Positions 14,973 through 57,485 of a DNA stretch of 64,000 nucleotides are shown one piece after another. A program made the position numbers and the translations under genes. The notes below the pieces were generated by a model. The model was not told where the DNA came from, did not search any database, and worked only from the letters and a program-made list of their open reading frames with translations. Each line of letters begins with the position of its first letter. Within the stretch, counting starts at the first letter, position 1. Source of the stretch: Candidatus Bathyarchaeota archaeon B24 (lineage in GTDB: Archaea; Thermoproteota; CALKCG01; B24); contig LUCB01000010.1 of assembly GCA_001593865.1 (NCBI GenBank), positions 4,441 through 68,440 on the forward strand. Direction: 5' to 3'.

Positions 14973-17888
14973 CTACTCGACGTATATCGCTGGTCTACGT
15001 GGCCTTGAGAGTTTAGCCCTGGACCTCGGGTCGTATACGTCTGGGTCGTCTTCGCCGTAGACCAAGACCTCTGCTTTAAGCTCCCTCTCTAGAAAGCCTT
15101 TAACCTCCTCAAGCAGCTTACGTTCATGTTCAGCCCCGAGCTTAACCCATGAGGACAAACGGCCTCTATCTATCTTAGGCAACGATTCCAGCAGAGTCTT
15201 GACGAACCTAGCTAGGGTGGCTTTATCGACGTCGAGCTCTTTAAACCTGGATAGAGCTTCTCTGACCGTGGGGGTCTTCGGCTCGCTTAGGACATCTCTG
15301 TAGACCTTCCACTTCCATGAAGCCGCGACATAGTAGACTATCCTGGAGGGCTTACCTGGGACGACTCTGAATATGCTTTTCGTATCCTCGATCAGGCTTC
15401 GAACGAATTCTTCACCCATCTCAGCCTCCTCGTCGACCAGCGTCTGGTCGGGTTTAGGCCACTCCGCCTTGCAAACCAAACCCGGCATACCGAGTATGCT
15501 CCAAACCTCCTCGGCCGTGTAGGGGGCTAAGGGCGCCAGCAGCCTAGCCCTAACCTCCAGATACCTCTTCAAGACACTTGAGGACTCCTCCGCCTCCTTC
15601 AGGCTTGAACAGCCCTTTCTCCTGAGGAACCAGCTCAGGTCGTTATCCATCTGGTACAGCACCATCTGGGTAGCCCTTCTTATGTCGAGGTTCTCCAAGG
15701 CCTCGGTGGTCTCCTCGACCACCCTTTGAAGCCTACTCATGAGCCATCTCTCGGCTCTATCCCACTTAGGCTCCTTATCGGGCATGGATGCTACGACCCG
15801 ATACTGCGTACGGATCTTCTCCAAGAAGTCTCTGACAGACTTGGCGAGCGTAAGGCTGAAGTTGGCGTCTTGAAGCAGACCCGCCGTCGAGACGACCGCT
15901 ATCCTCAACGCGTCTGCACCGTATTCCCTTATAGCCTCTCTAAGCGGTATTATGTTGCCTAGGCTCTTGGACATCTTACGCCCCTCCATGAGGACGCTGC
16001 CGTTAACCACTATCTGCCTAGGCCAGAGCTCCCTAGGGAATATCGCTACGTGGTTGAATATGAAGAACGTCAAGTGGTTCGGCACCAGGTCTCTGCCCGA
16101 ATGCCTACTGTCTAATGGATAGAAGTATAGAAACTCTCTTCTAATCTGCTCGACCACCTCGGGTCTCGCCCTTATGGAGGACGCCACTTCTTCGAGGTCG
16201 CCTAAGCCTAGAAACACGTAGTCGAAGAACTTATCGTTCAGCCTCGTAGGGTCGATCAAACCCATGTTTATGTACTTAGACACTATGTAGTACGCCATGT
16301 AGATCGTGCTATCCGACAGAGACTCTATTATCCAGCTCTCATCCCAGGGAAGCTTCGTACCCAAACCCCTCTGCCTAGCGCACGCCCTCTCCCTAAGCCA
16401 GTCGACGACGTTGTTGAACTCCAACCTAAGCTCCTCTGGGACTATCCGCATGGAGCTTAGACACTCGTATGCTAGAGACTTCCACTCCGGGTTCCCGTAG
16501 TCTAGGAACCACTGGTTCTCCAGTATTTTGACGACGCATTCCGCACCGCATCTACAGTATACCTTGTCGACGAGCTCGTATACGACTCTCGCATCACCCT
16601 TGCTCAGCAGCTCCTCCTTCACGCGTTCTCTAGCTTCCGAAACACGCATACCCGAGTACTTACCGGTGTTCTCCAGCATCACACCGGTGGATAGCTCACG
16701 CCTATAGAGCTCTCTAGTCGCCTCGTCAAGCTTCTTGTCGGTTTGGGTTTTGATACCCATCCTCTCGCAGATGTCGGCAGCCGGGATGTCTCCGAATCCC
16801 CTAACCTTGATGATCGTGATGGGCTTTATGTCCAAACCCATTCTCTCTCTGATCTCCTTAAGCGCCATGTAGTCGTACGGGGCATGGCTCGGCACAGACA
16901 TCACGACTCCGGTGGCGTGGCCTGAGTCGACGAAATCGGCCGCCAGTATGGGAACTGCCTCACCGGTCATGGGGTTCACGGCTTCCCTACCGACGAGCTC
17001 TGAACCCTTGAAGACCTCTAAAACCTTTACCTTAAGGTTCTGATACTTGAGCTTCTCAGAGGCTTTCAAACCGATTATCCAGTTCTCCCCGTCGACCACG
17101 GCTTTGACGTAGTCTGCCCGCGGGTTTACCCATATGTTTGTAACCCCGAAGACCGTCTCAGGTCTGAGGGTCGCCGTCGGTAGGTACCATTCCCCCATCC
17201 TAAACTTTATGGCGACGAACTCCGCTATCTCAGGCTCGACGTCGCCCTTGGTGTCGTGCATCCCGACCGGGTTTTCGCAGCTCGGACACCACCCCACAGG
17301 ATGCGTTCCTACCTTAATATACCCCCTCTCCCTGAGCTTCCGGAACTGCCACTGGATAAACCTGCTGTAGCCTGGGTCTATGGTCGTGAACTCCCTCCTC
17401 CAGTCTATCGAGTAACCCATCTCCTTCATACCGGTTTTTATCTCCTCGTGGAAGTATCTAGCCATCTTAAGCGGGTCCTCAAGCTCCTTAAGCCTCTCCC
17501 TAGGCACCTTGTACAGCCTGACGAACAGGTCTATGAGCTCCTCATCCCCTGCGGCTAGCCTCTTAGCCATCGCTAGTACCGGTGTACCCGTGTAGTGGAA
17601 GGCCATAGGTAACAGTGCCTGGAATCCTCTCATCCTCTTGTAGCGGGCGTAGATGTCGGCTATCGTGTAGGTTCTACCATGACCCACGTGCTGGGGGCTG
17701 TTTGGATACGGATATGCGACGGTTAGGTAGAACTTAGGCTTAGAAGGGTCTGGGTCTATCTCGTATACCCTCTCCCTCTCCCAGACTCTACGCCACTTCT
17801 CCTCGATAGACCGCACATCCGAAGCAATAAAAAGGTCACCGGTAAGGATAACGACTCCCATTATTATTATAAAGCTTTCCCCTCTCAC
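14973..17888 (-). CDS. leuS: Leucyl-tRNA synthetase (archaeal type); true start probably about 70 nt downstream of the called start
   Basis: AYPYPNSPQHVGH (HIGH), ATLRPET editing domain, KMSKS. Confidence 0.95.
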   Translation of the reverse strand: MRGESFIIIMGVVILTGDLFIASDVRSIEEKWRRVWERERVYEIDPDPSKPKFYLTVAYPYPNSPQHVGHGRTYTIADIYARYKRMRGFQALLPMAFHYTGTPVLAMAKRLAAGDEELIDLFVRLYKVPRERLKELEDPLKMARYFHEEIKTGMKEMGYSIDWRREFTTIDPGYSRFIQWQFRKLRERGYIKVGTHPVGWCPSCENPVGMHDTKGDVEPEIAEFVAIKFRMGEWYLPTATLRPETVFGVTNIWVNPRADYVKAVVDGENWIIGLKASEKLKYQNLKVKVLEVFKGSELVGREAVNPMTGEAVPILAADFVDSGHATGVVMSVPSHAPYDYMALKEIRERMGLDIKPITIIKVRGFGDIPAADICERMGIKTQTDKKLDEATRELYRRELSTGVMLENTGKYSGMRVSEARERVKEELLSKGDARVVYELVDKVYCRCGAECVVKILENQWFLDYGNPEWKSLAYECLSSMRIVPEELRLEFNNVVDWLRERACARQRGLGTKLPWDESWIIESLSDSTIYMAYYIVSKYINMGLIDPTRLNDKFFDYVFLGLGDLEEVASSIRARPEVVEQIRREFLYFYPLDSRHSGRDLVPNHLTFFIFNHVAIFPRELWPRQIVVNGSVLMEGRKMSKSLGNIIPLREAIREYGADALRIAVVSTAGLLQDANFSLTLAKSVRDFLEKIRTQYRVVASMPDKEPKWDRAERWLMSRLQRVVEETTEALENLDIRRATQMVLYQMDNDLSWFLRRKGCSSLKEAEESSSVLKRYLEVRARLLAPLAPYTAEEVWSILGMPGLVCKAEWPKPDQTLVDEEAEMGEEFVRSLIEDTKSIFRVVPGKPSRIVYYVAASWKWKVYRDVLSEPKTPTVREALSRFKELDVDKATLARFVKTLLESLPKIDRGRLSSWVKLGAEHERKLLEEVKGFLERELKAEVLVYGEDDPDVYDPRSRAKLSRPRRPAIYVE

Positions 17889-17953
17889 TCTGATGGATCA
17901 ACACCCTTGACGTCAGAAACCTATTTAAACCCATGAGACATCCGTTTTATCTC

Positions 17954-18030
17954 GGGATGATGAGGGAGGTGATCTCTAAGCCTCGAAAGGCTTACGGCGA
18001 GGCTTTGACGTCAGCCCGATAAGCTGACCC
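17954..18030 (+). ncRNA. Box C/D guide sRNA candidate
   Basis: GGG-ATGATGA (C box 17957-17963)...CTGA (D box 18024-18027)-CCC terminal stem; degenerate D' CTAA and C' TTGACGT; TATA TATTTAAA at 17922-17929, about 25 nt upstream. Confidence 0.72.
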
Positions 18031-18798
18031 CTATACATTTTTCGACGATAACTCCCTACAGGCTTTAACCACCGCGTATGCGACTCTCTTCTCGGAGCTG
18101 GCGACTACATCCGAGTCGAACATAGGCTTCCAATCCCCAGAATAAAGCTCATCCGTCACCGTAACGACGCCGGCAAGCTTAACTCCCCTCCTCATACCGA
18201 CCGCCATCAAAGCGGTCATCTCCATATCGACCACCAGTACACCCATGTCTGAATACTCTCTGACCTTGGACAAAGTTTCCATAAAAGGCGCGTCGGTACT
18301 CCATATACCCCCGGTCTTAAAATCCAACCCCGCCTCGGCCAGGGATTTTTCCAACGTCCTCAAAGCCGACGGGTCTGGTTTAACCATGACGTCAGGTTCT
18401 ACGTAATGATAGCTCACCCCCTCCTCCCTCAAACCCCAGGTGGGAACCACGACATCCCCGGCTTTAACCTCCCTTTTTATCGACCCCGCCGCACCCATAA
18501 CCATGAAATACTTTACACCACCGGCTACTAGAATCTCCATCAACATCGCCGAAGCAGCCGAGCCGAAATATGACTGGAAGACTCCCACCTCGCCGGACAT
18601 TACGGCCCTGAGGCATCCCAGCGGAACCCGTTCAAGCCCTTCATAACGGTCTAACGCGTCTTTTACAAGGGTAAAGGCTTCAGACGTAAACGTTATGATG
18701 GCTGCTCTTAAGCCGTATCGTTTAACCGTATCCGAGAACCGGGTGGGCTTTACGATAGACTCCTCGTCTGGCTTAACCGTCCTTATGAACCCGATCAT
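18031..18798 (-). CDS. Nucleoside phosphorylase (PNP/UDP family)
   Basis: GAAGS, EEGVSYHY, WSTDAPFMET, VDMEM, VTDEL. Confidence 0.88.
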   Translation of the reverse strand: MIGFIRTVKPDEESIVKPTRFSDTVKRYGLRAAIITFTSEAFTLVKDALDRYEGLERVPLGCLRAVMSGEVGVFQSYFGSAASAMLMEILVAGGVKYFMVMGAAGSIKREVKAGDVVVPTWGLREEGVSYHYVEPDVMVKPDPSALRTLEKSLAEAGLDFKTGGIWSTDAPFMETLSKVREYSDMGVLVVDMEMTALMAVGMRRGVKLAGVVTVTDELYSGDWKPMFDSDVVASSEKRVAYAVVKACRELSSKNV

Positions 18799-57389: not shown

Positions 57390-57485
57390 TGCCGGGGGAG
57401 GGGTTTGAACCCTCGACTTCTGGACCCTCGGGTTTGGTTCTCCAGATTATGAGTCTGGCGCTCTTACCCGCTGAGCTACCCCGGC
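57390..57485 (-). tRNA. tRNA-Met(CAU), elongator type, with a 22-nt intron at position 45/46 (57418-57439); CCA not encoded
   Basis: GCCGGGG/CCCCGGC acceptor, GCTC/GAGC D arm, CCAGA-CTCATAA-TCTGG anticodon arm, GAGGG-TTCAAAC-CCCTC T arm; TATA TTTAAATA 24 nt upstream. Confidence 0.92.

Follow-up and report, generated by a model that had tools for sequence, protein, structure and literature searches.

The 3′ region of 16S rRNA has been mapped by MALDI-MS and RiboMeth-seq in Nanoarchaeum equitans and Ignicoccus hospitalis (Seistrup et al. 2017, PMC5389701). In N. equitans, the methylation Am1534 is guided by the sRNA Neq sR13, as verified by both methods; one of its guides is described as pairing with nt 1531-1540 and the other with nt 1405-1415. 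In I. hospitalis, Cm1533 was measured, "involving a presently unknown sRNA" in the wording of that paper, which is the single relevant paper found for 'Cm1533' in the searched literature. Canonical archaeal dual-guide sRNAs, exemplified by the Pyrobaculum sR RNAs (PMC6009581; PMC4644070), possess four boxes and 12-nt guides, follow the N+5 rule and include orphan guides (28% of Pyrobaculum guides; Lui 2018, PMC6009581). The box C/D snoRNAs U13 and snR45 pair around helix 45 and guide acetylation by Kre33/NAT10 (Sharma 2017, PMC5464676).

Here we describe a predicted box C/D sRNA in the window, a 64,000-nt stretch of DNA from Candidatus Bathyarchaeota archaeon B24. As far as Neq sR13 is described in PMC5389701, the two are alike in being C/D sRNAs with one guide lying on the 16S 3′ tail across the anti-Shine-Dalgarno sequence (anti-SD), a likeness of described pairing. 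They differ in register by one nucleotide (Neq sR13 is directed to A1534, while N+5 of the window sRNA falls on C1533), in the second guide (directed to A1408 in helix 44 in Neq sR13, orphan here) and in their hosts, N. equitans being described as lacking RsmA/Dim1, which is present in this genome and five other tested carriers. C1533 is the same nucleotide as that measured in I. hospitalis (PMC5389701), although this link is positional only. With the canonical dual-guide sRNAs, as described in PMC6009581 and PMC4644070, the window sRNA shares the four boxes, the 12-nt guides, the N+5 rule and an orphan guide, but it has a long spacer (26 nt, which amends an earlier account; 17-19 nt in the sister genus) with a stem that would form an internal K-turn instead of a K-loop, and its D′ and C′ boxes are degenerate in the window's genus. 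Like U13 and snR45, it is a C/D RNA predicted to pair with the 3′-terminal helix 45 region of small-subunit rRNA during maturation; their pairing is described as bipartite around a bulged C and leads to acetylation (PMC5464676), whereas the window sRNA has a single 12-nt guide beside D′.

No description of the sRNA family was found in the searched literature on the anti-SD and box sRNAs. The terms 'Shine', 'h45' and 'helix 45' are absent from the main texts of Dennis 2015 (PMC4644070), Lui 2018 (PMC6009581) and Breuer 2021, whose supplementary tables (for the first two, the target tables) may list such a target. The kind of system is known, and the family looks like, and plausibly supplies, the missing Cm1533 guide.

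Architecture and genomic setting

Judged from its sequence, the element at 17954-18030 (+) is a conserved archaeal box C/D guide RNA with a predicted transcript of ∼77 nt, comprising a RUGAUGA C box, a CUGA D box, GGG/CCC ends and two 12-nt guides (Table 1). A sequence-only reading of this DNA had claimed a GGG/CCC terminal stem, perfect C and D boxes and a 12-nt D′ guide preceding a degenerate D′ box CTAA, and all of these box, guide and stem elements are present. Its claim that the element has its own TATA box is borne out by a TATA-like sequence ∼28 nt upstream, which may serve as the promoter. In the sister genus, TTTATTTTAAG-like T/A-rich stretches are found equally far upstream of the copies, and T-rich runs follow downstream. 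Relative to the consensus CUGA and UGAUGA, the D′ box (CTAA) and C′ box (TGACGT) retain the final A of D′ and the first UGA of C′. The D′ box CUAA of this genus lacks the G of the sheared G-A pair, a loss by which L7Ae binding, or methylation guided from D′, may be impaired.

Table 1. Elements of the predicted sRNA and its immediate flanks, in window positions
Feature	Position	Strand	Basis and remarks
TATA-like promoter element TATTTAAA	17922-17929	+	sequence; ∼28 nt upstream of first G of the sRNA; putative function
Terminal stem, 5′ half GGG	17954-17956	+	pairs with CCC 18028-18030; retained in sister genus
C box ATGATGA	17957-17963	+	sequence; invariant in 7/7 family-f1 sequences
D′ guide GGGAGGTGATCT, 12 nt	17964-17975	+	complementary to last 12 nt of 16S rRNA
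D′ box, degenerate CTAA	17976-17979	+	CTGA in sister genus; CTAA also in L089 and L096
Spacer, 26 nt, stem-forming	17980-18005	+	minimum free energy (MFE) fold
Spacer stem GCCTCG 17980-17985 / CGAGGC 17998-18003, then 2-nt TT overhang	17980-18005	+	fold
C′-like box, degenerate TGACGT	18006-18011	+	TGATGG/TGATGT/TGATTA in sister genus
D guide CAGCCCGATAAG, 12 nt	18012-18023	+	apparent orphan; rRNA and tRNA targets only at chance level
D box CTGA	18024-18027	+	sequence; invariant in f1
Terminal stem, 3′ half CCC	18028-18030	+	sequence
T5 run, possible archaeal termination signal	18038-18042	+	sequence; putative role

The host genome comprises 1.73 Mb in 37 contigs with 51% G+C, and the window lies on contig C14. 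On one side the sRNA is flanked by the divergent leucyl-tRNA synthetase gene leuS (14973-17888, -; Pfam tRNA-synt_1 and leucyl editing domain), and on the other by a PNP_UDP_1 phosphorylase-family gene (18031-18798, -) with its stop codon at 18031-18033. In agreement with the earlier statement that no plausible ORF follows the Shine-Dalgarno (SD)-like sequence, the ORF listing contains no + strand ORF of at least 40 aa starting inside or after the element, and there is no ATG after the SD-like motif inside it.

Some further features of this region were noted. The leuS ORF as listed begins with GTG at 17888, and the sister-genus LeuS aligns only from residue 20 in 4/5 loci; the true start is probably farther downstream in the gene (17831-17888 region, -), which would lengthen the intergenic region shared with the sRNA promoter. 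Two copies of the 10-mer TTGACGTCAG, in which the palindrome TGACGTCA is embedded, lie less than 100 nt apart, one upstream of the TATA-like element (17907-17916) and one across C′ and the start of the D guide (18005-18014). The 10-mer is found three times in the whole genome and the 8-mer 13 times, and TTGACGTCAG is absent from the sister-genus sRNA copies; the repeat may be left over from a duplication or may be the site of a regulator. Elsewhere in the window, a tRNA match at 57390-57485 (-) covers 96 nt against a 71-position model, and this tRNA probably contains an intron.

Pairing of the guides with rRNA

The single 16S gene of this genome (contig C5) terminates in ...GCGGCCGGATCACCTCCT, and every position of the D′ guide is paired in a duplex with the final 12 nt (12/12, of which 10 are Watson-Crick and 2 are terminal G-U pairs). 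The match to the 16S end had been recognized from sequence, with its size given as 11 nt and one G-U. The 16S 3′ end is the best site for the D′ guide in 16S and 23S (score 11, compared to 8 for the next) and, when ranked by duplex energy, in the flanked rRNA operon (-20.8 compared to -17.1 kcal/mol for the next best), while the best score against the 37 tRNAs detected by ARAGORN is 8; a better target was found in none of these sets. A score of at least 11 against 16S and 23S is reached by 17/1500 random genomic 12-mers. The match in this genome alone is only moderately rare, and the evidential weight comes from its conservation.

Counted from D′, the N+5 base is G17971, which lies inside the duplex and opposite C1486 of the 16S rRNA of this genome, the C of GGAUC. 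This is the C of GAUC beside the anti-SD to which the sequence-only reading had assigned the methylation. Because PMC5389701 numbers the E. coli positions U1528-G-G-A-U1532 and A1534-C1535, C1486 corresponds to E. coli C1533, located two nt before the CCUCC core. SD-like 5-mers peak at positions -14 to -10 before ATG (64 at -12, compared to a background of ∼10, among 1358 ORF starts), indicating that the anti-SD is in use in this organism.

For the D guide, no target above chance was found in 16S and 23S, in the operon with flanks, or in the 37 ARAGORN tRNAs. A 16S target near positions 560-570 had been suggested, but is not supported: at this site, UUAUUGGGC (16S 522-533), the guide forms a 9-bp run (8 Watson-Crick and 1 G-U) with a score of 8.5, which is the random median, reached by 744/1500 random 12-mers, and the site is not conserved in the sister genus. 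The sister-genus D guides score at most 7.5 against their own rRNAs, and D guide sequences vary among lineages. In the window's lineage the guide looks like an orphan. A proposed C1402 target of the Micrarchaeota D guide is unsupported by contiguous-run scoring in three genomes.

The guide could instead be an antisense guide for base modification near helix 45, for example ac4C formation by a Nat10/TmcA homologue in the manner of U13/snR45. The genome encodes a Nat10/TmcA-like gene, precedent exists in U13/snR45 (PMC5464676), and a speculation that small RNA guides assist archaeal Nat10 is found in PMC7005279. However, U13 and snR45 are described as pairing bipartitely around a bulged target, while here one segment pairs with the 16S 3′ region, and neither the final 200 nt of 16S nor the operon contains a site that stands out as a match to the D guide or spacer; we consider an acetylation guide very improbable.

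The 23S gene of this genome (L002, contig C5:43392-47664) spans 4273 nt against a 2987-position model, and the 16S genes of the sister genus (L033, L034) measure 1637 and 1755 nt compared to 1493 nt here, which suggests rRNA introns or insertions differing between genera.

Conservation in the host family

A DNA search for the element covered eight genomes of the host's family. The same-genus genome contains the whole element at 99% identity, and the 5′ half is found at 90-93% identity in 5/6 sister-genus genomes, the one without it being 72% complete. All of these homologues are divergent from leuS, the location upstream of leuS in relatives at which the earlier note had proposed that homologues be sought. 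The sister copies have the form GGG-ATGATGA-xAGAGGTGATCT-CTGA, followed by a 17-19 nt spacer, TGATGG/TGATGT/TGATTA, an 11-12 nt guide and CTGA. In the alignment of seven f1 sequences, no variation is seen in the C box, at guide positions 3-12, at three of the four D′ positions or in the D box, in contrast to the spacer and D guide; conservation of the C and D boxes, on which the box C/D assignment had been made to depend, is thus complete in 7/7 sequences. For the two sister genomes that include rRNA genes, the guide again has its highest-scoring site at the 16S 3′ end, with 10 bp (9 Watson-Crick and 1 G-U); taken by itself, the score of 9.5 is matched by 246/1500 random 12-mers. Among nine genomes of families f2-f4, belonging to the same order, no match to the pattern with up to two mismatches was found.

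Wide distribution and fixed register

A strict pattern, TGATGANNGAGGTGATCNCTRA, consisting of the C-box TGATGA, NN, GAGGTGATC, N and CTRA with the register imposed, was used to scan one genome per species for 185,579 species. The scan returned 52 loci, of which 33 are in archaeal metagenome-assembled genomes (MAGs) and 19 are bacterial by record title. The archaeal loci are labelled Micrarchaeota or Anstonellales (12), Desulfurococcaceae or Desulfurococcales (7), Bathyarchaeia or Bathyarchaeota (4), Thermoprotei or Thermoproteales (3), Njordarchaeota (2), Heimdallarchaeota (1), Promethearchaeati (1), Thermoplasmata (1) or only 'archaeon' (2). The five sister-genus copies are identical to scan loci labelled Bathyarchaeia or Bathyarchaeota and, in one case, 'uncultured archaeon'. 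A downstream C′-like box followed by 10-14 nt and CTGA is present at 30/33 archaeal loci and 1/19 bacterial loci, and the D′ box is the canonical CTGA in most family members. No match was found in genomes labelled as cultured species, including I. hospitalis, and none of the seven Desulfurococcaceae/Desulfurococcales-labelled MAGs bears the name of this species. A guide of this family for Cm1533 in I. hospitalis would be expected to contain the core GAGGUGAUC one nt before a D or D′ box.

The absence of an Rfam family at gathering score speaks in favor of a non-functional origin, in which a chance SD-like motif would lie between box-like words in a promoter region. In the window, the best match among Rfam C/D families is sR44 (16 bits against a cut-off of 45), and a search of 15 of the 33 archaeal loci gave no C/D family match, so the anti-SD-guide sRNA family is not in Rfam. 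An sR44-style reading of 17929-17981, corresponding to the 16-bit match, was rejected because the sister genus does not conserve the upstream half of this segment. We find a non-functional origin scarcely credible, in view of the conservation across two genera with invariant boxes and guide and a variable remainder, the occurrence of the C box-guide-D′ unit in many archaeal phyla and in other genomic contexts, and the C/D architecture in just one of the 19 bacterial chance matches.

In further scans the register was left free. Among 401 genomes of the window's phylum, five sister-genus and two f27-family genomes match, with identical spacing in 7/7; a further match in G346 with 14-nt spacing was judged to be due to chance, as it sits in an apparent coding region. 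In the phylum of the Micrarchaeota carrier G403, with gaps of 0-6 nt after the C box and 0-4 nt before CTGA allowed, 40/151 genomes match, compared to none with a reversed-pattern control, although kin are not independent and such carrier counts overstate the support. Exactly 1 nt separates AGGTGATC and CTGA in 41/41 matches in this phylum, and 3 nt follow the C box in 39/41. Because the gap between AGGTGATC and CTGA is always 1 nt, the N+5 nucleotide is always the same C. A methylation guide requires the N+5 register and antisense masking does not, and the fixed register therefore favors a methylation guide. Of five Micrarchaeota carriers searched, three have a 16S gene, ending in ...GGAUAGAUCACCUCC/A, and in 3/3 an uninterrupted run of 10 Watson-Crick pairs joins the guide to the 16S 3′ end, far above other 16S sites.

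The guide is also a perfect extended SD sequence (GGAGGUGAUC) with no start codon after it, in a genome that uses SD-like motifs at the frequencies given above. The RNA might act on the mature 30S subunit as an SD mimic, competing with mRNAs for the anti-SD and tuning SD-led relative to leaderless translation; a translation regulator had also been put forward in the sequence-only reading. We give this little credence: the motif invariably lies precisely where the guide of a complete C/D RNA belongs, with a fixed N+5 register, and no precedent was found in the searched literature.

Other copies of the sRNA differ in their surroundings. In a Micrarchaeota MAG (L061, 5703-5799) and two Asgard MAGs (L076, 828-962; L102, 3213-3349), a tRNA gene on the same strand immediately precedes the sRNA, an arrangement that fits the tRNA-sRNA co-transcripts described in PMC7994747. 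At L103 (∼1512-1620) the sRNA is directly followed by further TGATGA...CTGA units, in what looks like a tandem C/D sRNA cluster.

Spacer fold

The MFE fold pairs GCCUCG with CGAGGC across the spacer (-10.1 kcal/mol), a value equalled by 3/200 shuffles. Two mutually exclusive spacer folds had been claimed, and both hairpins are present: TAAGCCT 17977-17983 / AGGCTTA 17988-17994, found in this genus only, and AAGCCTCG 17978-17985 / CGAGGCTT 17998-18005, the one used by the MFE fold. The alternation itself is restricted to this genus, and only GCCTCG/CGAGGC occupies the position of the stem in the family, where long-spacer members have a stem running from the first spacer base after D′ to two bases before C′ in 12/14 cases. 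A stem followed by a 3-nt bulge (including the U of C′) and then G-A pairs has the full K-turn geometry, as opposed to the usual archaeal K-loop. From the predicted fold, the spacer stem is likely the canonical stem of an internal K-turn. Two MAGs labelled Thermoprotei (L089) and Thermoproteales (L096) have a CTAA D′ box and a 5-bp GCCGC/GCGGC spacer stem, the same combination of a degenerate D′ and a strong spacer stem as in the window.

Host machinery and other C/D RNAs

The genome contains genes for fibrillarin (318 bits) and a Nop5-type Nop domain protein (250 bits). Strict regular-expression scans of the genome yield almost no other C/D RNAs. However, a scan that ignores the internal boxes and scores the D guide against rRNA yields 11 candidates at 10 loci, compared to 2 in a reversed-genome control, which rules out the idea that the window sRNA is the sole C/D sRNA of the genome. 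Candidate loci on C1, C5, C17, C18, C21, C22, C26 and C34 have D guides scoring 10-12 against rRNA; several combine degenerate D′ and C′ boxes with good terminal stems (e.g. C17:53766), and C23:93512 (+) is one further box C/D sRNA candidate. Degenerate internal boxes appear common in this lineage, and the C/D repertoire of the genome appears modest.

KsgA/Dim1 (RrnaAD) homologues were found in 6/6 carriers tested, comprising this genome and five others. In these carriers, this rules out the sRNA as a KsgA/Dim1 substitute of the kind proposed for Nanoarchaeum.

Proposed function

The best explanation of the observed architecture, complementarity, conservation, fixed register and protein genes, and one that we consider probable, is that the sRNA guides methylation of C1533 and covers the anti-SD transiently. 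We infer that it would be independently transcribed as an RNA of ∼77 nt and would assemble with L7Ae, Nop5 and fibrillarin. The pairing partner of the D′ guide would then be GGAUCACCUCC[U] (E. coli 1529-1540), the 3′ tail of (pre-)16S rRNA, which is single-stranded. Most likely the guide directs ribose methylation at the C adjoining the anti-SD, the N+5 rule predicting 2′-O-methylation of C1533, two nt 5′ of the CCUCC anti-SD core. While the sRNA is bound, the anti-SD would necessarily be covered, and methyl transfer would take place during 30S maturation. The sequence-only reading had already proposed a guide modifying the anti-SD flank during this process, and this becomes the best reading because Cm1533 and sR13-guided Am1534 are reported in PMC5389701.

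Within this genus, a pairing-only role as a chaperone or mask is also conceivable, in which the sRNP or the RNA alone would bind the 16S 3′ tail without methylating it, and the anti-SD and 3′-end processing site would be held single-stranded or covered as a late 30S timing or quality-control step. Here the D′ (CUAA) and C′ (UGACGU) boxes are degenerate, yet the guide pairs over a longer stretch than its sister-genus counterpart (12 compared to 10 bp); a folding and checkpoint role has been proposed for Neq sR13 (PMC5389701), and chaperone roles of guides are argued for in Lui 2018 (PMC6009581). Nevertheless, masking would not need the D′ register to be fixed as it is in all free-register matches, most family members have canonical CTGA D′ boxes, and the presence of KsgA/Dim1 in all tested carriers indicates that the sRNA does not replace that checkpoint. 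We regard binding without methylation as unlikely, if worth weighing, and note that masking and methylation are compatible and not exclusive roles.

Significance

Selection of mRNAs is the task of the anti-SD tail of 16S rRNA, whose handling during archaeal subunit maturation is, to our knowledge, poorly known. The sRNA is a concrete candidate for the Cm1533 guide, with an exact site and a fixed register, and its presence extends over many archaeal phyla, the very small DPANN genomes among them (40/151 sampled, a count that includes kin). This distribution suggests a much broader occurrence of Cm1533 than two cultured species would imply.

A broader scenario, which is speculative and in our view distinctly unlikely, is that an ancient pan-archaeal family (Bathyarchaeia, Desulfurococcales-labelled MAGs, Micrarchaeota, Asgard and Thermoplasmata) serves as the Cm1533 guide, but that its real value may be in holding the anti-SD tail through the last steps of 30S maturation, with methylation marking release. 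In lineages with degenerate D′ and C′ boxes (this genus and L089/L096), the sRNA would then act as a pure anti-SD mask or as an SD mimic that gates new 30S subunits into SD-dependent initiation. The natural CUGA and CUAA variants of the D′ box would offer a handle for separating methylation from masking.
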